Shown here: positions 3,308 through 46,098 of the stretch, one piece after another
How the letters are laid out: every line of letters starts with the position of its first letter
Position numbering within the stretch: position 1 is the stretch's first letter
Origin: a virus
Taxonomy: Duplodnaviria > Heunggongvirae > Uroviricota > Caudoviricetes
Virus record (IMG/VR): IMGVR_UViG_2541047873_000005
DNA length: 47,737 nucleotides
Reading direction: 5' to 3' (one strand)
Position numbers and translations under genes: made by a program
Notes under the pieces: generated by a model
What the model saw: the letters and a program-made list of their open reading frames with translations, nothing else
Told to the model about the DNA's origin: nothing
Databases searched by the model: none

Positions 3308-3883
3308 CTACGGCAGTGCTGGCCATTCAATATCCTGTGCAGTTGACGTATCAACACGGTTCAGCAATACCCGATACTTTTTCCATGCTTCCAGCAACGA
3401 GATTTCTTCCTCCGTTGCAATTTCCAGATCTGCAGCATCCTGAAGCGGCGCAATATGCTCACTGGCTACCTGCATCAGGTTGTTTTTTGTTTCTTCCGCC
3501 TCCCGGATCCGGAACAGTTTTTCTGCTTCCGTATCCTTCACCCAGGCTGTGCCGTTCCACTTCTGAAACTCCCCTTCCGGGGATAACCAGGTGACATTTT
3601 CCGGTAATGGGCCAAGTTCAGAAATAAATAACGCGTCGCCGGAAGCCACGTCATAGACGGTTTTACCCCGATGATCTTCAACGAGATGCCACGATGCCTC
3701 ATCACTGTTGAAAACAGCCACGAAGCCAGCCGGAATATCTGGCGGTGCAATATCGGTACTGTTTGCTGGCAGACCTGTATGAGGCGGAATATATGCGTCA
3801 CCTTCACCAATAAATTCATTAGTTCCTGCCAGCAGATTATAAATTTTTATGGTCCGTGGTTGTTCACTCATTCTGAATGCCAT
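3308..3883 (-). CDS. tfa: Tail fibre assembly protein Tfa
   Basis: N-terminus [20 protein letters not shown] matches lambda Tfa along its length; ATG overlaps the stf stop (TAATG). Confidence 0.85.
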
Positions 3884-28054: not shown

Positions 28055-28325
28055 GATGTTACCGTAGTATGTGAGTATCCATCGAATAGATACCAAGCAA
28101 AAAAGCTCCCGAAGGAGCCTTCATTTTCACTTTTTTAAATCCAACGACAGACGGCTGGCATTTAAGTATTGTGAAATATTATCAAATGTAATCATCATTG
28201 ATTTACAAAAGATACATTTTGCCCCGAAAGGATTCATGTCAGAAACATCAAAAGATGATGTTCTATACTGGGAACCATGACAACACGGGCATCTAAAGTG
28301 AATATGGTTTGTAATATTGTCTACC

Positions 28326-28538
28326 TCAAAGCGCCACTACATGAACAGCGGCAGGACCTTTAGGTCCGTTCTCAATACCAAATTCAACTTCCTGATTCTC
28401 AGTTAATGTTTTGAAATCGTTGCTCTGAATTGCTGAGAAATGGACAAACACATCTTTGCTGCCATCTTTCGGCGTGATGAAACCAAAACCTTTTTCAGGG
28501 TTAAACCATTTCACTAAACCAGTCATTTTGTTAGACAT
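28326..28538 (-). CDS. cspI: Cold shock protein CspI
   Basis: 70 aa [70 protein letters not shown]; RNP1/RNP2 cold-shock domain motifs. Confidence 0.9.
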
Positions 28539-28901
28539 AATTATTACCTTTTGAAGAAATTAGCCCTTGGGCAGAATGGTCCGAAAAAAAATATCAGAGA
28601 GAAAAACCAACAAGGAAATCTCAAGAGGTACAAATAATAAAATTATAACAATGACTGCTTCAGATAAATTTGTAACAAACCAGAACACCATTAACGCATG
28701 ATTAACCACCCATAGCAAGGATTACTTTTGTAAAGAAAAACACAGCAATGAAAGAATAGCTTTATTTATTAATAATAACGTGTCATTCTGATTAAGACCT
28801 TTTATCTTACCCTTAAGATTTCAGGAATTTTGGCTCATGGAAGAGTCCTTTTTATTTAAATTTTACATTCCGCGATGTAAATGTTCCGATTTAATATTAC
28901 C

Positions 28902-30929: not shown

Positions 30930-31210
30930 GAGATTGTGGTGCTTTTTGTGGGAGTCATCCACTTACGCACTTTGTTTTGCCATGCCAGCAGTTAGCTTCT
31001 GCTGTAAAACTATTCATGCAGCAAACCTGCACTTCACCACAATGGTTAGCATACTTTTCCTGATTAAGATTTTGCCAAATATGCTAGCCATTGTTTCATG
31101 TATTGGACCTCCTTACTTTTTATTAAAGAGATCCAATATTCACTACTCTGTCCGTATCTCTACTCAGGCATCAGCCTTCTTCGTTATCGTATACAGACGA
31201 GCGATGAATT

Positions 31211-31426
31211 TTAATCAGTAATGATGACATTTGCTGCTGCAGGACCTTTAGCACCACTCTCTATAGAGAAGGTAACCTTTTGACCTTCAAATAAGGTTCG
31301 ATAATTATCATTCTGAATCGCAGAAAAATGCACAAACACATCTTTACTACCATCAACAGGAGAAATAAAGCCGAAACCTTTATCAGCGTTAAACCATTTT
31401 ACTAAACCAGTCATTTTATTTGACAT
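31211..31426 (-). CDS. cspB: Cold shock protein CspB
   Basis: 71 aa [71 protein letters not shown]. Confidence 0.9.
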
Positions 31427-31726
31427 TCTACATTCCTTAACTTGAGCCTTTCGGCATAAATGGTTTGCATAACAGAAACGACTTCGTACTTAATTGGAGA
31501 GACTCAAAGAAGGAATAAGTGAATAACACCTGAAATGAGAACTGCTTTAGTAAACTACTTCGTATATCGTCTGTTCTTCAAACCGACGCAATCATTAACG
31601 CATAGTTGAACATATGAAGCAATGTTTATTTTAGACATCCAGCCATCTTCAACCCCATCAAAAAACTATAGCTTTCTTCAGGAACGTGTGTATAGTGCGC
31701 CAAGTTATCAGTATTAAGGAATTTTT

Positions 31727-34522: not shown

Positions 34523-34774
34523 TTATTCTTCTGCAAAAGCAGAAAAGCCAGCTTTTATTCCGATCTCTTTCAATGCCTGTAATGAAGTGACAAACTCACC
34601 TTCGCGCAAGATAAATCCGTCCGTGACCCGAGCATCCACAAAATTAATTAACGCAGCCCCATTCTTTCGCAAACACATAATGCGGTAATGACTAACAAGA
34701 TTTCCATTTTCAACGCACACAGCATAGAGGCCATCTTCACAAAAAATTTTACGCAGTTCTTCGATGTTCATCAT
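34523..34774 (-). CDS. Hypothetical protein (83 aa), unknown function
   Basis: ORF with AAGGA RBS 6 nt upstream of ATG; sits between rem and hok; no recognisable family. Confidence 0.5.
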   Translation of the reverse strand: MMNIEELRKIFCEDGLYAVCVENGNLVSHYRIMCLRKNGAALINFVDARVTDGFILREGEFVTSLQALKEIGIKAGFSAFAEE

Positions 34775-34990: not shown

Positions 34991-35146
34991 TTACTCCTCA
35001 GGTTCGTAAGCTGTGAAGACAGCGACCTCCGTCTGGCCGGTTCGGATTCGTACCTCGCAGAGGTCTTTCCTCGTTACCAGTGCCGTCACTATGACGGTTA
35101 AACAGATGACGATCAGGGCGATTAACATCGCCTTTTGCTGCTTCAT
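34991..35146 (-). CDS. hokD: Hok-family membrane toxin HokD (RelF)
   Basis: 51 aa MKQQKAMLIALIVICLTVIVTALVTRKDLCEVRIRTGQTEVAVFTAYEPEE matches HokD; track ORF 34991..35203 carries an in-frame upstream extension. Confidence 0.9.
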   Translation of the reverse strand: MKQQKAMLIALIVICLTVIVTALVTRKDLCEVRIRTGQTEVAVFTAYEPEE

Positions 35147-35935
35147 AGCCTGCTTCTCCTTGCCTTTCGGCTCGTAAGAGGCTAACCTACATGTGTCTAG
35201 CATGAAATTGGCCTCAGATTAATGTTAAGCGTCTTGCAGGACGCGTAATGTTAACTGGGGCTTTTCTCTATCTGCCTTTGGTGTTCATGCCCGAGGCAGA
35301 TAGCCTCAAGCACCCGCAGCCATTCTACTTAACTACCGTTACCTCGCCAATATGAAATCAGTCAGAAAGGCGATCCATAAGAACAATAGCAAGACAATAA
35401 ATCGCCATTACAGCCGTAATAGCCAGCGCACATTTGAGAACCAGCACCACAACCTCCTGTATTGGACGTAGACCAGTCCTGATGAATATGAGGCTGTCTC
35501 GTCAGTGATTCAATACAACTATTGGGTATAGTTTCTCTGATTTTTTCTGTGGAAATGGGGCACAACCACTAGTCACCACCAGCACTTCTTTTAATACGCA
35601 AAGTCCGACACAAGCTAACCTTCTAGTCCGCTTTGAGCGAAAAACAGCCATAATTTAGTGCCACGTATATAATGATAGAGCTATTCAAGCTAGCAATTCA
35701 CATGTAAAAATTCAGAGGGTAGAAGCACATAGTTATAAATGTTGGCTCCATCGACAAATTGCGGTCTCAAGTACATTTATTAATGTTGCCCCCGCATTAA
35801 CAAATCATCAAGGTGACGACATGGACGATATTAATATCAGCCTCGACGAACTTAACACTATTGATTTATCCCCCTTAATCCTGAACCGCCCCGGGAATCC
35901 TGGAGACTAAACTTCCTGAGAAAGAGGTAAACAGG

Positions 35936-36262
35936 ATGACTAAAAATACTCGTTTTTCCCCCGAAGTCCGTCAACGGGCAGTCCGTATGGTTCTGGAAAG
36001 TCAGAGCGAATATGACTCACAATGGGCGACAATTTGTTCCATTGCTCCAAAGATTGGCTGTACGCCGGAGACTCTGCGTGTCTGGGTTCGCCAGCATGAG
36101 CGGGATACCGGGGGCGGTGATGGAGGGCTCACCACCGCTGAACGTCAGCGTCTGAAAGAGCTGGAACGTGAAAATCGTGAACTGCGCCGCAGTAACGATA
36201 TCCTTCGCCAGGCTTCCGCTTATTTTGCGAAGGCGGAGTTCGACCGCCTCTGGAAAAAATGA
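35936..36262 (+). CDS. IS629 transposase OrfA (HTH)
   Basis: 108 aa [37 protein letters not shown]...; ends next to an A6 run usable for -1 frameshift into orfB. Confidence 0.9.
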
Positions 36263-37149
36263 TGCCACTGCTGGATAAGCTGCGTGAGCAGTACGGGGTC
36301 GGACCGCTATGCAGCGAACTGCATATTGCCCCGTCAACGTATTACCACTGTCAGCAACAGCGACATCATCCGGATAAACGCAGTGCCCGTGCGCAGCGCG
36401 ATGACTGGCTGAAGAAAGAGATACAGCGCGTATACGATGAAAATCACAAGGTATACGGTGTGCGTAAAGTCTGGCGTCAGTTGTTACGGGAAGGTATCAG
36501 AGTGGCCAGATGCACTGTGGCACGTCTCATGGCGGTTATGGGACTTGCCGGTGTTCTCCGGGGTAAAAAGGTCCGTACGACCATCAGCCGGAAAGCCGTT
36601 GCCGCAGGCGACCGCGTAAACCGTCAGTTCGTGGCAGAACGACCTGACCAGCTGTGGGTGGCTGATTTTACTTACGTCAGCACATGGCGGGGCTTCGTCT
36701 ATGTGGCGTTCATCATTGATGTGTTTGCCGGATACATCGTGGGGTGGCGGGTCTCATCGTCCATGGAAACGACATTCGTGCTGGATGCACTGGAGCAGGC
36801 GTTATGGGCCCGTCGACCGTCCGGCACGGTCCATCACAGTGATAAAGGTTCTCAGTATGTATCGCTGGCCTACACACAGCGGCTTAAGGAAGCCGGATTA
36901 CTGGCATCAACAGGAAGTACAGGCGACTCGTATGACAACGCGATGGCGGAGAGCATCAATGGTCTTTACAAAGCGGAGGTAATACACCGTAAGAGCTGGA
37001 AAAACCGTGCAGAAGTGGAACTGGCCACACTCACGTGGGTGGACTGGTATAACAATCGACGATTGCTGGAAAGGCTGGGCCATACTCCTCCGGCAGAAGC
37101 AGAAAAAGCTTATTATGCTTCCATCGGAAACGATGATCTGGCAGCCTGA
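36259..37149 (+). CDS. IS629 transposase OrfB (DDE integrase core)
   Basis: 296 aa, -1 frame overlap with orfA; DDE motifs (WVADFTY..., HSDKGSQY..., DNAMAES). Confidence 0.9.
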
Positions 37150-37385
37150 GTTCACAGATAAAACACTCTCCAGGAAACCCGGGGCGGTTCATCCAGAGTA
37201 AGCTGCCAGTTACCTGCTTTGATATCACAAAGTATCTTTCTAGCCTAGGTGATGGAAGAGCGGAGATAAGACTGCTAACCCATATTTGCGGTTTTCACTT
37301 TCGTCCCGAAAATCCACAGGTACCATTTGGTCCGTGCTTTCAAAGCAGCCAAGGTAGATCTGCAATTCCGGATGACATTAACGGG

Positions 37386-40601: not shown

Positions 40602-41049
40602 TTGCTTTTTCTATAAGTTCGTCAGTTTCACGATCCACTACGGCAGGATCAGCAAAAAGCAGTCCGGACTCCACCACATCGCCATATTCTTTGTTTAACC
40701 CGGCGATCATGTACGTGATGCTTTTTCCGTCACTAATTTCACGATACAACCTGAAATCATTAATCCGGATAGCCTCCATAATTGCAGGCACTAGCGCCGT
40801 GAACTTTTCACGCTTATCCCTGGTGTCGATAGCCTTCCAGCGTTCGAATATCTTCACTCGATTAACGCCAAGCGCTCGCTGATCAACCGCGCCACCTTCA
40901 TCTGTGACACGCTGAACATCGATGTTCGGGCGCTCTTTCAAAGCCCAGAATGCTTCAGTGATTAATATCGTCGCCTGCTCCTGTGTCATTCCTGGTCGAC
41001 ATATCCAGGCATCCAGAGCCTCACGAGCCTGTTCAGGAGTGATTTTCAT
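40528..41049 (-). CDS. Hypothetical protein (173 aa) in the cII/YdaT position
   Basis: ORF between cro-like gene and replication initiator; weak resemblance to Rac YdaT around KREKFTALVPAI. Confidence 0.45.
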   Translation of the reverse strand: MKITPEQAREALDAWICRPGMTQEQATILITEAFWALKERPNIDVQRVTDEGGAVDQRALGVNRVKIFERWKAIDTRDKREKFTALVPAIMEAIRINDFRLYREISDGKSITYMIAGLNKEYGDVVESGLLFADPAVVDRETDELIEKAIAFKLAYRQQYQQKAGWNYEPSFC

Positions 41050-41260
41050 TGTTCAACCGCCCCGCCCGCTTCGTCTTACGATATTCGTCATAAACCTTGG
41101 GATCATACAGAAGCTCGCCGCCAGATGCCTCCTGTAGACGCATCGCGCGACCTTCAGGAACCAGCTCTTGCCATTGAGAAACAGCAGATGGGTCAACGCC
41201 AGCAGCTTTCGCTACTTTGGCTTTCGTACCGTAAAAATTAATTACGTCTGATTTAAACAT
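41033..41260 (-). CDS. dicC: Cro-like repressor DicC
   Basis: 75 aa; C-terminal half LVPEGRAMRLQEASGGELLYDPKVYDEYRKTKRAGRLNNENHS matches recalled K-12 DicC; divergent from dicA. Confidence 0.75.
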   Translation of the reverse strand: MFKSDVINFYGTKAKVAKAAGVDPSAVSQWQELVPEGRAMRLQEASGGELLYDPKVYDEYRKTKRAGRLNNENHS

Positions 41261-41337
41261 CGCACCTCCAGTATTGAGTTTTCTCAATGCTAATCACTCA
41301 AGGAATCTCAAGTCAAGGGTTATTAAGATATCTAAAT
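41261..41337. promoter_or_regulatory. dicC-dicA divergent promoter/operator region
   Basis: 77-bp gap between divergent repressor genes; palindrome TTGAG-tttt-CTCAA at 41274..41287 and tandem CTCAAG repeats. Confidence 0.4.
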
Positions 41338-41745
41338 ATGAACGAGAAAACTTTAGGTCAACGCATTAGAGAAAGACGTAAGCAGGTAGGTTTAAGTCAA
41401 AACGGTTTAAGCAAAGCTGCTGGCGTATCTGGCTCATCAATTTCATTATGGGAAAGTGACCATACAGCCCCGCGCGGGCAAAATTTGCATCGCCTCGCCG
41501 AGGTATTGCAATGTTCACCAACCTGGATACTGTTTGGCGACGAGGACAAAACACCAGCTCCCCCTGTTTCACTCGATAGTGCCTTAGACTTATCGGAAGA
41601 TGAGTTAGAGATGCTGCGTTTGTATCGCGCACTTCCTAAATCAGAGCAACAAGCACAACTCAGCGAACTCCGCGCCCGCGTTGAGAATTTTAATCGCCTG
41701 TTCACCGAGCTATTAGAGGCTCGCAAACGCAACAAGCATCAATAA
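41338..41745 (+). CDS. dicA: cI-like repressor DicA (HTH XRE family)
   Basis: 135 aa from MNEKTLGQRIRERRKQ...; shares VLQCSPTWILFGDEDK and C-terminal pattern with K-12 DicA. Confidence 0.8.
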   Translation: MNEKTLGQRIRERRKQVGLSQNGLSKAAGVSGSSISLWESDHTAPRGQNLHRLAEVLQCSPTWILFGDEDKTPAPPVSLDSALDLSEDELEMLRLYRALPKSEQQAQLSELRARVENFNRLFTELLEARKRNKHQ

Positions 41746-41937
41746 TCATCCCTTCACAAAATTTTAAAGCCTTACATTTCAATGTATTGGCTTTATCTTG
41801 CGCCAATACTTGAGTTTTCTCATCAAAAAGCCTTGACGAAAAATAATGAGAAAACTAAATTACCTCCATCAACACACCGCACGGTGTTCTCAGCAAACAG
41901 TTCCGCTACCCCGGCGTTAAGGGGAAATGAGGTCAGC

Positions 41938-42093
41938 ATGGATACTATCGATCTTGGCAACAACGAATCTCTGGTGTACGGCGTGTTTCCAAACCAGGAC
42001 GGCACGTTCACCGCAATGACGTATACCAAAAGCAAAACGTTTAAAACCGAAAATGGTGCCCGTCGCTGGCTGGAAAGAAACTCAGGTGAGTGA
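41938..42093 (+). CDS. ydfA: YdfA (DUF1391)
   Basis: 51 aa MDTIDLGNNESLVYGVFPNQDGTFTAMTYTKSKTFKTENGARRWLERNSGE; RBS GAGG before ATG. Confidence 0.7.
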   Translation: MDTIDLGNNESLVYGVFPNQDGTFTAMTYTKSKTFKTENGARRWLERNSGE

Positions 42094-42094
42094 T

Positions 42095-42670
42095 ATGGAT
42101 TTCGACACAATCATGGAAAAGGCTTACGAAGAATACTTCGAAGGCCTTGCCGAAGGCGAAGAAGCTCTCAGCTTCAGTGAGTTTAAACAGGCACTCAGAA
42201 TAAGAATGCGCTCTCACAATGACGCGGAGCACAAATATGAGAAGCAAAATCAGACCGCAGAAAATTTTGTTCTGGAACCCGGAGAAACGCTTTTCAAAAT
42301 TCCCGTTACGTGCCCCATTTGCGGTTTTACATCAGAAGAACTTGACGACTCCTGTAACAATCAGGAAACAACCAAGTATGTCGAAGATGATACCGAGTGC
42401 GCACGAAGAACGATTATATCCACGAGTCCAAACTCCAGGACCAATAAATCTCACTTTGAGAGGGTGATTAATCCACTCCCCCAAACCAATAAAAAAGATG
42501 CCGGAGGACAAAAAAACCAATGGAACAACGGGATATCTGTCAAAAAAAGACGTTCCATTAAAGACAAACAACGCAGCGCCAACAACTGTAAGCGCTTTAT
42601 ACCAGTAATCAATTTTCATGTTCTTAAGCGGATTTATTGGTGGTTGCGACATTGCTTAATGAATCCTTAA
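42095..42670 (+). CDS. YdfB/YdfC-like protein (single ORF here)
   Basis: Starts MDFDTIMEKAYEEYFEGLAEGEEALSFSEFKQAL (YdfB-like) and continues to a basic C-terminus; start taken just after ydfA. Confidence 0.5.
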   Translation: MDFDTIMEKAYEEYFEGLAEGEEALSFSEFKQALRIRMRSHNDAEHKYEKQNQTAENFVLEPGETLFKIPVTCPICGFTSEELDDSCNNQETTKYVEDDTECARRTIISTSPNSRTNKSHFERVINPLPQTNKKDAGGQKNQWNNGISVKKRRSIKDKQRSANNCKRFIPVINFHVLKRIYWWLRHCLMNP

Positions 42671-42928
42671 AACTGTGGTGATTTTAAGGATACCACCTCG
42701 CCTGACGTGGTTAAAAGCAGGCACACAACACGAAAGCGCACGGCGAAGTTCGTCTCACTGTACGGTGTCGTCAAATTTAATTCGACCGTGCGCTTCCGGT
42801 TGTGGCAACCCGCGAAATGGCGCGGCGGTAAGTATGGCGGGGTTATTCCTTCCCCGTTGAGGACACCGAGTTGTCAGGTTGACCATACGCTTAAGCGACA
42901 ACCCCGCTGCAACGCCCTCTGTTATCAA

Positions 42929-42987
42929 TTTTCTGGTGACGTTTGGCGGTATCAGTTTTACTCCGTGACTGCTCTGCCGCCGTTTTT
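42929..42987 (+). ncRNA. dicF: DicF small RNA (ftsZ-targeting, Hfq-dependent) with intrinsic terminator
   Basis: TTTCTGGTGACGTTTGGCGGTATCAGTTTTACTCCGTGACTGCTCTGCCGCC followed by T5 matches the recalled DicF sequence; located between ydfC and dicB. Confidence 0.85.
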
Positions 42988-43156
42988 AAAGTGAATTTTG
43001 TGATGCGGTGAATGCGGCTAAGCGCACGCGGAACAGTTAAAACCAAAAACAGTGTTATGGGTGGATTCTCTGTATCCGGCGTTAATTGTTAACTGGTTAA
43101 CGTCACCTGGAGGCACCAGGCACTGCATCACAAAATTCATTGTTGAGGACGCGATA

Positions 43157-43345
43157 ATGAAAACGTTATTACCAAACGTTAATACGTCTGAAGGTTGTTT
43201 TGAAATTGGTGTCACTATCAGTAACCCTGTATTTACTGAAGATGCCATTAACAAGAGAAAACAAGAACGGGAGCTATTAAATAAAATATGCATTGTTTCA
43301 ATGCTGGCTCGTTTACGTCTGATGCCAAAAGGATGTGCACAATGA
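43157..43345 (+). CDS. dicB: Cell division inhibitor DicB (MinC activator)
   Basis: 62 aa MKTLLPNVNTSEGCFEIGVTISNPVFTEDAINKRKQERELLNKICIVSMLARLRLMPKGCAQ. Confidence 0.9.
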   Translation: MKTLLPNVNTSEGCFEIGVTISNPVFTEDAINKRKQERELLNKICIVSMLARLRLMPKGCAQ

Positions 43346-43533
43346 ATTCAGCATTTGCGCTTGTTCTGACAGTTTTTCTTGTTTCCGGAGAGCCAGTTGA
43401 TATTGCAGTCAGTGTTCACAGGACAATGCAGGAGTGTATGACTGCAGCAACCGAACAGAAAATTCCCGGTAACTGTTACCCGGTCGATAAAGTTATTCAC
43501 CAGTATAATATCGAAATCCCGGCAGGTCTTTAA
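43342..43533 (+). CDS. ydfD: YdfD small membrane lysis protein
   Basis: 63 aa MNSAFALVLTVFLVSGEPVDIAVSVHRTMQECMTAATEQKIPGNCYPVDKVIHQYNIEIPAGL; ATGA overlap with dicB stop. Confidence 0.8.
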   Translation: MNSAFALVLTVFLVSGEPVDIAVSVHRTMQECMTAATEQKIPGNCYPVDKVIHQYNIEIPAGL

Positions 43534-43626
43534 AACAGTTCCGTAATAAATATCCGGTTTCATTCTTATATGCCAGCAATGGCAGGGATTTGTTCATCCT
43601 TAAATCTGTCATGAGGTTAAAACAAA

Positions 43627-46098
43627 ATGAGTAAAGTCTTTATTTGCGCCGCTATTCCTGACGAACTGGCAACAAGGGAAGAAGGCGCTGTGGCTGTAGC
43701 CACAGCCATTGAAGCTGGCGACGAACGCCGTGCTCGAGCAAAATTTCACTGGCAATTCCTGGAACATTATCCGGCTGCTCAGGACTGCGCTTATAAATTT
43801 ATTGTCTGCGAGGATAAACCTGGCATACCCCGCCCTGCCCTCGATTCATGGGATGCTGAATATATGCAGGAAAACCGCTGGGATGAGGAGTCTGCTTCTT
43901 TTGTCCCGGTTGAGACTGAATCCGATCCGATGAACGTCACTTTTGACAAGCTGGCCCCTGAAGTACAGAACGCTGTCATGGTTAAGTTCGACACATGTGA
44001 AAACATCACCGTTGATATGGTTATTAGCGCACAGGAATTGTTGCAGGAAGACATGGCAACATTCGACGGACATATCGTTGAAGCGTTGATGAAAATGCCA
44101 GAAGTTAACGCCATGTATCCGGAGCTTAAGTTGCACGCCATTGGGTGGGTTAAGCATAAATGTATTCCTGGTGCTAAATGGCCCGAAATTCAGGCAGAGA
44201 TGCGCATCTGGAAAAAACGTCGCGAAGGTGAACGCAAGGAAACCGGAAAATACACGTCTGTTGTTGATCTCGCCCGCGCCAGAGCCAATCAACAGTACAC
44301 TGAAAATTCAACAGGAAAAATCAGCCCGGTCATTGCTGCCATTCATCGCGAATACAAGCAGACATGGAAAACACTGGATGACGAACTGGCCTACGCTCTC
44401 TGGCCTGGTGATGTGGATGCCGGAAACATTGACGGCAGCATCCATCGCTGGGCAAAAAATGAAGTTATCGATAACGACCGCGAAGACTGGAAGCGTATCT
44501 CGGCATCAATGCGCAAACAGCCTGATGCCCTTCGCTACGACCGCCAAACTATTTTTGGCCTTGTCCGTGAACGTCCGATCGACATTCACAAAGATCCCGT
44601 AGCACTGAACAAATATATCTGCGAATACCTGACGACAAAGGGCGTGTTTGAGAATGAAGAAACAGACCTGGGCACTGTTGATGTTCTCCAGTCATCAGAA
44701 ACACAAACTGATGCAGTGGAAACTGAGGTATCTGATATCCCAAAAAATGAAACCGCGCCGGAAGCTGAACCATCTGTAGAGCGTGAGGGGCCGTTCTATT
44801 TCCTCTTCGCAGATAAGGACGGAGAAAAATACGGTCGCGCAAACAAACTTTCTGGTCTGGATAAGGCACTGGCTGCTGGCGCCACTGAAATCACAAAAGA
44901 AGAATATTTTGCCCGAAAAAATGGCACATACACGGGCTTACCGCAAAATGTAGATACCGCTGAAGATTCAGAACAACCAGAGCCGATAAAAGTTACCGCT
45001 GACGAAGTAAACAAAATTATGCAGGCAGCCAATATCATCCAGCCTGACGCCGATAAGTTGCTTGCTGCATCACGTGGTGAATTTGTTGAAGGGATTAGTG
45101 ACCCGAATGATCCGAAATGGGTTAAGGGGATCCAGACCCGCGATTCTGTGAACCAGAACCAGCATGAATCGGAACGGAACTACCAAAAAGCGGAACAAAA
45201 CAGCCCAAATGCGTTACAAAACGAGCCAGAAACGAAACAGCCTGAATCAGTGGCGCAACAGGAAGTGGAAAAAGTCTGCACCGCCTGCGGTCAGACCGGC
45301 GGCGGCAACTGCCCTGATTGTGGCGCGGTAATGGGCGACGCAACATACCAGGAAACATTCGATGAAGAGTATCAGGTTGAAGTTCAGGAAGATGATCCGG
45401 AGAAAATGGAAGGCGCTGAACATCCACACAAGGAGAACACTGGCGGCAATCAGCATCACGATAGCGATAATGAAACTGGCGAGACGGCAGATCACTCAAT
45501 TAAGGTGAACGGTCATCACGAAATCACATCCACCAGCAGGACGTGTGACCATCTAATGATCGACCTTGAAACCATGGGAAAAAATCCTGATGCCCCGATC
45601 ATCTCAATAGGTGCAATATTTTTCGATCCGCAAACCGGAGATATGGGACCGGAATTTATTAAGACTATCGATCTGGAAACTGCTGGCGGAGTCATTGATC
45701 GGGACACCATTAAATGGTGGTTTAAGCAATCACGCGAAGCGCAATCTGCCATTATGACCGATGAAATCCCGTTAGATGATGCACTGTTACAATTGCGGGA
45801 ATTTATCGACGAAAACTCCGGTGAATTTTTTGTTCAGGTCTGGGGAAATGGAGCCAACTTCGACAACACGATTTTGCGCCGTTCATACGAACGGCAGGGG
45901 ATCCCCTGCCCGTGGCGTTACTACAACGATCGCGATGTACGCACAATCGTTGAGCTGGGGAAAGCCATAGACTTCGATGCCAGAACGGCTATTCAATTCG
46001 AAGGTGAGCGCCATAATGCACTTGATGACGCCCGTTACCAGGCAAAATACGTTTCAGTTATCTGGCAAAAACTGATCCCGAGTCAGGCTGATTCTTAA
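43627..46098 (+). CDS. ydfE: YdfE-like N-terminal domain fused via zinc-ribbon and acidic linker to a DEDDh 3'-5' exonuclease domain
   Basis: 823 aa; N-terminal ~300 aa match recalled K-12 YdfE; CTACGQTGGGNCPDCG zinc ribbon; C-terminal Exo I (MIDLETMG), Exo II-like (WGNGANFDNTIL) and Exo III (HNALDDARY) motifs. Confidence 0.7.
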   Translation: MSKVFICAAIPDELATREEGAVAVATAIEAGDERRARAKFHWQFLEHYPAAQDCAYKFIVCEDKPGIPRPALDSWDAEYMQENRWDEESASFVPVETESDPMNVTFDKLAPEVQNAVMVKFDTCENITVDMVISAQELLQEDMATFDGHIVEALMKMPEVNAMYPELKLHAIGWVKHKCIPGAKWPEIQAEMRIWKKRREGERKETGKYTSVVDLARARANQQYTENSTGKISPVIAAIHREYKQTWKTLDDELAYALWPGDVDAGNIDGSIHRWAKNEVIDNDREDWKRISASMRKQPDALRYDRQTIFGLVRERPIDIHKDPVALNKYICEYLTTKGVFENEETDLGTVDVLQSSETQTDAVETEVSDIPKNETAPEAEPSVEREGPFYFLFADKDGEKYGRANKLSGLDKALAAGATEITKEEYFARKNGTYTGLPQNVDTAEDSEQPEPIKVTADEVNKIMQAANIIQPDADKLLAASRGEFVEGISDPNDPKWVKGIQTRDSVNQNQHESERNYQKAEQNSPNALQNEPETKQPESVAQQEVEKVCTACGQTGGGNCPDCGAVMGDATYQETFDEEYQVEVQEDDPEKMEGAEHPHKENTGGNQHHDSDNETGETADHSIKVNGHHEITSTSRTCDHLMIDLETMGKNPDAPIISIGAIFFDPQTGDMGPEFIKTIDLETAGGVIDRDTIKWWFKQSREAQSAIMTDEIPLDDALLQLREFIDENSGEFFVQVWGNGANFDNTILRRSYERQGIPCPWRYYNDRDVRTIVELGKAIDFDARTAIQFEGERHNALDDARYQAKYVSVIWQKLIPSQADS

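Follow-up and report, generated by a model that had tools for sequence, protein, structure and literature searches.

The closest described relative of the locus analysed here is the dicBF operon of the Qin prophage in E. coli K-12 (ydfA-ydfB-ydfC-dicF-dicB-ydfD-ydfE′), which is controlled by DicA/DicC and Rem. Its promoter, dicBp, is repressed by DicA and is derepressed by the antirepressor Rem or by spontaneous switching; from the polycistronic transcript RNase III generates a 190-nt form of DicF and RNase E the 53-nt form (PMC10448788). The 3′ region of this sRNA pairs with the ribosome-binding site of ftsZ and the 5′ region with xylR (PMC5069750). DicB, acting via MinC, hits both Z rings and ManYZ, leading to DicB-dependent resistance to lambda-type phages (PMC6832061). 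YdfD inhibits IspG, with cells lysing unless division is blocked, and the charge of its C-terminal domain has been proposed to matter (PMC8835842). The homologous region of strain UTI89, from dicC to exoO, was found to induce filamentation in a library screen (PMC6206680). A parallel layout is present in the early-left region of the K-12 Rac prophage (racR-ydaG-ydaF-sieB-kilS-kilR-...-recET), and embedded antisense overlapping genes, such as ano, have been described in E. coli O157:H7, where the cases rest on Ribo-seq of young, narrowly distributed ORFs (PMC5960689, PMC9927249).

We analysed a stretch of 47,737 nucleotides of viral DNA (hereafter the window), for which the original prediction had placed an intact DicF-DicB-YdfD cassette at 42929-43533, coordinates that are correct to within one base. 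The cassette is real and correctly named; it is also ordinary and already known (PMC5069750), since the 2.7-kb dic region occurs at 100% identity in dozens of RefSeq E. coli genomes and the interval 41900-43600 is found full length, at 98.9%, in the isolated phage HannyBb. Parts of the 2.7-kb region are present in 4762 of 5426 complete E. coli genomes, and in the RefSeq records examined dicF carries no annotation. The main point of interest lies upstream of the predicted coordinates, in a mis-annotated two-strand block that replaces ydfC.

The window matches the 46-kb prophage of E. coli CFSAN061770 at 99.98% identity, the sole structural difference being a 1.3-kb IS3-family insertion at 35885-37187. 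That prophage sits between ydfJ′ and rspB, which is the chromosomal site of K-12 Qin. At DNA level the two prophages share ydfA, the DicF precursor stem, dicF, dicB, ydfD and rem at 98-99% identity; K-12 Qin differs in having its own immunity module and operators, and ydfB-ydfC where the window has a 517-bp block. The prophage is also larger here (about 46 kb against 20 kb) and lacks relBE. Its exonuclease, xis and int genes are intact, whereas those of K-12 Qin are truncated by IS2. The exonuclease gene (43627-46098, plus strand) encodes 823 residues with an Rv2179c-like 3′-5′ exonuclease domain (Pfam, 1.6e-66); K-12 ydfE is an IS2-truncated remnant of it, and homology to K-12 stops at 44393 (IS2E). 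The segment 43627-47737 as a whole holds intact exonuclease, excisionase and integrase genes, of which K-12 has only shortened remains in ydfE and intQ.

Head, tail, lysis, Q-type antiterminator, replication, xis and int genes are all present in the prophage. Besides HannyBb, in which the matching interval includes the replacement block, phages Tritos, mEp460 and PhiR42_1 carry related versions that cover only 64-70% of the 41900-43600 query. Tritos is annotated with DicF, DicB and YdfD, and an annotated ydfC appears only in the records of other phages (vB_Eco and PPompW/Stx2a phages). A complete prophage, together with one isolated phage that carries the variant and others that carry related versions, identifies the locus as the early-left operon of a lambdoid phage family that is still living, and the ‘cryptic’ dicBF module of K-12 as that of a family that is still complete. 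The completeness of this gene set, and the occurrence of the operon variant in HannyBb with relatives in Tritos and mEp460, also suit a reading in which an active temperate phage uses the cassette chiefly for host takeover in the lytic cycle, halting division while the phage develops, and in which it is not a domesticated host function of the kind discussed for cryptic Qin. We give this reading an even chance: roles in the lysogen are compatible with the same data, K-12 showing both stationary-phase DicF and spontaneous switching (PMC10448788), and the prophage does carry one IS insertion.

The 53-nt dicF lies at 42930-42982 on the plus strand. Scanning the window against 4227 Rfam families at their gathering thresholds returned DicF (RF00039) at 42931-42982 (plus strand) with 72.5 bits, where the family threshold is 48. 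The alignment spans all 52 model positions (1-52), and the E-value, calculated over the window in full, is 3.6e-14. Alignment to K-12 dicF (b1574) likewise succeeds, with 52 of 53 bases identical. The sole change is at nucleotide 53, C in K-12 and G here, a position that is unpaired both in the Rfam consensus and in the predicted DicF-ftsZ duplex; among the related prophage loci compared, G53 was found 61 times and C53 16 times. The fold predicted by RNAfold has an energy of −16.6 kcal/mol here and −15.9 kcal/mol for K-12, and the predicted DicF-ftsZ duplex −38.9 and −38.5, respectively. The bases that pair with ftsZ, in the 3′ part, and with xylR and pykA, in the 5′ part, are unchanged, the pairing regions being those given in PMC5069750. 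Because nucleotides 1-52 are those of K-12, no base of the experimentally tested ftsZ pairing is altered, and mutation of these bases, which would have undermined the original prediction, is not seen.

The terminator that had been predicted together with the sRNA is also present. Folding and sequence place a terminal hairpin and T-run at 42945-42987 (plus strand), with the hairpin at 42945-42981 followed by TTTTT at 42983-42987, which forms the DicF 3′ end. This element is absent from the listing of the intrinsic-terminator scan, because the hairpin contains an internal loop, and is supported by folding instead. Upstream, alignment and folds, read with the K-12 scheme (PMC10448788), locate the conserved base of the long RNase III-site hairpin at 42733-42800 on the plus strand; the base is conserved relative to K-12 and the apical loop is diverged. 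The 5′ end of the 190-nt precursor is expected near 42793. The RNase E site sequence, the stem base and the terminator are all conserved in sequence, and the DNA between 42782, within the RNase III stem, and the last base of ydfD differs from K-12 at only eight positions.

Downstream, both reading frames are full length and overlap at ATGA (43342-43345), as had been proposed. The MinC-dependent division inhibitor gene dicB (43157-43345, plus strand) encodes a 62-residue protein that does not differ from K-12 DicB, and passes the thresholds of Pfam PF05358 (1.9e-40; 136.8 bits, cut-off 27) and NCBIfam NF049927 (132.8 bits, cut-off 100). We infer from this identity to the characterised K-12 protein that the DicB of the window binds MinC and blocks Z rings. 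The lysis gene ydfD (43342-43533, plus strand), whose K-12 product is the IspG inhibitor, encodes 63 residues that match Pfam DUF1482 (9e-26; 90 bits, cut-off 25) and are identical to K-12 at 61 of 63 positions. Of the two substitutions, V6A and D55Y, the latter removes one negative charge from the C-terminal domain; two conserved cysteines (...QECM... and ...GNCY...) are kept. An effect on phage susceptibility had been ascribed to both division inhibitors. It is documented for DicB, through MinC and ManYZ, but not for DicF: the published resistance phenotype is DicB-dependent (PMC6832061). In the dicF-dicB spacer, which forms the dicB leader, Rfam gave a match below threshold at 42994-43134 to STnc100, an sRNA family of Salmonella (34.5 bits against 47, E = 6.6e-6), which suggests that STnc100 may be homologous to the dicB leader.

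The cryptic state of K-12 Qin and the two YdfD substitutions could be taken to mean that the cassette is a decaying, non-functional remnant. We regard this as very improbable, given that reading frames, sRNA, processing stem and terminator are all intact and that hundreds of genomes, as well as a viable phage, have kept the sequence at 99-100% identity.

The immunity region is less similar to K-12. As predicted, dicA and dicC family members lie upstream, both passing their NCBIfam cut-offs, but the immunity type is not that of K-12. The dicC-type gene (41033-41260, minus strand) encodes a Cro-like regulator (Pfam P22_Cro, 3.2e-16; NCBIfam DicC, 165 bits, cut-off 130) with 70% identity to K-12 DicC by BLASTP. 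The dicA-type repressor gene (41338-41745, plus strand; NCBIfam DicA, 239 bits, cut-off 101; Pfam HTH_3) encodes a protein with 57% BLASTP identity to K-12 DicA, diverged in the helix-turn-helix and recognition-helix region. The two genes are divergently arranged, with a putative operator motif shared at both promoters. A repeat search found this 13-nt motif, TTGAGTTTTCTCA, in the dicC-dicA intergenic region (41274-41286) and again at 41810, and in inverted orientation at 41847; the inverted pair (41807-41823 and 41846-41862) brackets a predicted dicBp, while the equivalent positions in K-12 hold TGTTAGTCATAACTAACA-type repeats. Within this plus-strand element (41807-41862) the promoter itself, TTGACG and TAAATT separated by 17 nt at 41833-41861, is a consensus match only, and a weak one, in a scan whose four sites compare with a chance expectation of 4.3 for the region covered.

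K-12 homology is lost from 41162 to 41866 and returns at 41867, which puts one breakpoint inside dicC and the other where the dicBp transcript region begins. With 57% identity, another recognition-helix region and another repeat, the repressor does not have the features expected of K-12 DicA specificity. Repressor and repeats co-vary, which supports a switch that works, through putative operators, but is heteroimmune to that of K-12 Qin. The gene for Rem, the antirepressor that derepresses dicBp in K-12 (PMC10448788), was recognised by comparison with the K-12 protein at 34523-34774 on the minus strand and is intact, with two C-terminal substitutions. DicF, DicB and YdfD are near-invariant, in contrast to the immunity region and the genes that precede dicF, which have been exchanged.

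These observations are best explained, with high confidence, by a derepressible early-left operon whose intact DicF, DicB and YdfD would act as in K-12; the activities are deduced from identity or near-identity to the K-12 products. The locus would be the dicBp operon of a complete Qin-type lambdoid prophage, kept silent by the DicA-type repressor bound to the operators that bracket dicBp. Removal of the repressor (in K-12, by Rem or by a spontaneous switch) would yield one polycistronic transcript, in which RNase III would cleave within the conserved stem, some 137 nt before dicF begins, and RNase E trimming would leave the 53-nt DicF, its 3′ end being the intrinsic terminator. DicF with Hfq would then pair with the ribosome-binding region of ftsZ and block FtsZ synthesis. 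Transcripts that read through the terminator would give DicB, expected to bring MinC to the septum, dismantle Z rings and inhibit ManYZ, and YdfD, expected to inhibit IspG and cause lysis unless division is blocked. Several features count against this scheme. The DicA-type protein is only 57% identical to the one on which Rem was tested, YdfD has lost a charge through D55Y, and the dicBp assignment rests on the weak consensus match noted above. In addition, the operon lacks ydfC, and the stretch from dicBp to dicF contains a convergent gene, with a putative promoter of its own, that might reduce or gate read-through.

The original prediction that the whole Qin-type operon is intact stands for dicF, dicB, ydfD and ydfA, but not for the segment between ydfA and dicF, in which K-12 has ydfB and ydfC. 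The first gene, ydfA (41938-42093, plus strand; Pfam DUF1391, 1.7e-28), lies in DNA that is 99.4-99.7% identical to K-12. Positions 42193-42712 have no K-12 counterpart: a 517-bp block stands in place of ydfC and the 3′ end of ydfB, so that ydfC is gone and ydfB retains no more than its first 33-34 codons, which run on in frame into a foreign ORF. This variant is present in 806 of 5426 complete E. coli genomes. RefSeq (PGAP) annotates in the block only a 191-aa plus-strand ORF, as a hypothetical protein; in one near-identical genome ydfB is given as a truncated pseudogene and nothing else in the block is annotated. In 806 genomes, then, the conserved gene of the block lies on the unannotated strand.

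This gene (42332-42652, minus strand), which is convergent with the operon and carries no RefSeq annotation, encodes a 106-aa membrane protein with three hydrophobic segments and the invariant motifs DYWYKA and GEW-NHP (here GLGEWINHPL). Full-length homologues with 34-58% identity were found in Yersinia, Herminiimonas, Reinekea and many metagenomes; relatives amount to 28 loci in reference genomes and 483 representative clusters. In a comparison with a Rac-like prophage (L012), substitutions fell on first, second and third codon positions in the ratio 11/7/35, that is, mainly on third positions, and between lineages the 106-aa frame shows 30 synonymous and 17 nonsynonymous changes against 5 and 42 for the plus frame. 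From homologues, substitution pattern and hydrophobic segments we conclude that the minus-strand gene is real, is under purifying selection and was missed by RefSeq. A chance ORF on the minus strand was considered and is ruled out by the full-length homologues in many phyla together with the third-position pattern.

An AF2 model of the protein (pLDDT 83) has three helices and a beta-hairpin. The sequence has no match in Pfam, NCBIfam, PADLOC or PHROG, the model has no Foldseek match in PDB or BFVD at E ≤ 0.001, and a search of viral contigs with the Yersinia homologue returned no matches; gene neighbourhoods in Herminiimonas, Reinekea and one metagenome gave no functional clue. In every prophage context found, the gene adjoins the repressor and opposes the early-left operon. 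From this position only, our working view is that it may be a lysogen-expressed moron, possibly with an exclusion function; it matches sieB in position and orientation only, the sequence and fold searches above having given no similarity to SieB or to another known exclusion or defence protein.

Alignment of upstream regions from five diverged lineages revealed a promoter-like element and a palindrome at 42665-42715 (minus strand). The element, TTTAAC-17 nt-TGgTATCCT (plus-strand coordinates 42687-42715), is conserved in all five and is a putative promoter of the 106-aa gene. The palindrome, CCTTAAAA-N9-TTTTAAGG at 42665-42689, has arms that covary between lineages and contains the stop codon of the plus-strand ORF; it is a candidate for either an RNA hairpin or a protein operator.

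That plus-strand ORF (42095-42670; PGAP, PHROG 35040) joins the YdfB N-terminus to the foreign sequence, and the last 113 or so of its 191 codons run antisense across the 106-aa gene. Just outside the overlap it encodes the motif PGE.[LI]..IP..CP[IV]CGF (PGE..IP..CPICGF here, CPKCGH in Roseateles), which is kept between lineages even where identity of the membrane proteins is as low as 51-58%. In this 16-codon block the plus frame shows 49 synonymous and 60 nonsynonymous changes, against 2-31 and 75-104 in the other five frames. Inside the overlap the amino-acid sequence of the plus frame is unconstrained, yet the frame is free of stops across the whole 106-aa gene in all enterobacterial lineages, in which this gene, at 41-45% GC, uses no TTA, CTA or TCA codon. 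Resampling within lineages gave P values of 0.003-0.12 for this openness, and a Fisher combination over three lineages about 2e-4; in the background of annotated genes of the same prophage, open frames occurred in 2 of 61 GC-matched windows (28 of 167 when GC was not matched). In other prophages the plus ORF extends in frame into ydfC, and rare variants have frameshifts or stops in it.

Two simpler accounts of this frame were considered. That the 191-aa ORF is a mere annotation artefact was not sustained, in view of the synonymous variation in the CP[IV]CGF block and the open frame. That an open antisense frame is a family-wide trait is ruled out by low-GC homologues outside the prophage clade, which have 5-17 TTA, CTA or TCA codons, and is also contradicted by Rac sieB, with seven antisense stops.

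The pattern supports an antisense pair, one gene nested in the other, with a requirement that the spanning ORF remain open to translation. A fuller reading, which we advance tentatively and at somewhat below even confidence, is that the 106-aa gene is expressed in the lysogen from an exclusion slot and is nested antisense within a translated CPxCG ORF whose stops are selected against; as part of this joint reading it would cover the operon variant and the related Rac-like, Yersinia and Roseateles prophages. We hypothesise that ribosomes crossing the antisense gene may shield the early-left transcript, before dicF and dicB are reached, against polarity caused by Rho. A literature search of limited reach found no paper that describes the antisense pair or such a role for ribosomes.

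The Rac prophage offers a parallel to this arrangement. Rac and the window both have a repressor, a DUF1391 gene (ydaF, like ydfA), an opposite-strand membrane gene, an sRNA, an FtsZ-directed inhibitor and an exonuclease, with KilR and kilS in Rac where the window has DicB and DicF. The slot of sieB, between ydaF and the kilS sRNA and kilR, is that of the 106-aa gene. SieB (162 aa) and the 106-aa protein share no family-library match, family libraries being the only means by which they were compared, and the antisense frame of sieB is closed whereas that of the 106-aa gene is open. The same 106-aa gene is present in three Rac-like prophages, L012, L013 and L129, the first two of which have dicF as well. 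In these two the dicF 3′ end (L012 4665-4685; L013 4660-4680) adjoins the same membrane-protein gene, in company with kilR and recE-type exonuclease genes; dicF can therefore be combined with either division inhibitor.

The convergent gene also bears on how much of the cassette is expressed. Transcription from its putative promoter (about 42690-42715) against dicBp might gate the output of an otherwise intact cassette, through RNA antisense to ydfB/ydfA in the lysogen and collision of transcription on induction, so that levels of DicF and DicB would depend on interference and on translation of the 191-aa ORF. The purifying selection on the gene, the conserved promoter-like element, a plus frame kept open in at least three independent lineages against the rarity of such frames in the GC-matched background, and the similar Rac order, with sieB followed by the kilS sRNA and kilR, all fit this account. 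We nevertheless consider it doubtful: the antisense frame of Rac sieB is not open, K-12 makes DicF from an operon that has no replacement block, and any influence on DicF and DicB is purely conjectural.

The embedded genes of E. coli O157:H7 resemble this pair in that one gene lies wholly inside another on the opposite strand (PMC5960689, PMC9927249). They differ in that here the embedded gene is the conserved one, with its 483 clusters, and is known from sequence, and in that the spanning ORF is constrained only outside the overlap, apart from the avoidance of stops inside it. If the two-strand coding and the stop avoidance are real, the block provides a small, widespread model within an operon that is amenable to genetics. 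It could serve to examine how a phage can express an antisense gene in the lysogen and still allow transcription to read through an early operon.

Several minor features were observed elsewhere in the window. The IS3-family element, with terminal repeats TGAACCGCCCCGGG and an ALIL frameshift pseudoknot at 36217-36333, disrupts a DUF4209 gene at its 5′ end; CFSAN061770 has this gene uninterrupted. Within the region of the tail-fibre-assembly gene, at 3342-3540, there is an Rfam match to IS009. Two further Rfam matches, cspA-type thermoregulator leaders at 28299-28684 and 31195-31587, correspond to the cspB/cspF/cspI cold-shock cluster of Qin. Finally, hokD and the sok antisense RNA are kept, at 34991-35315 and beyond (Rfam, 116 bits), and homology to K-12 stops at 35160, where relBE, which lies 3′ of hokD in K-12 Qin, is absent.
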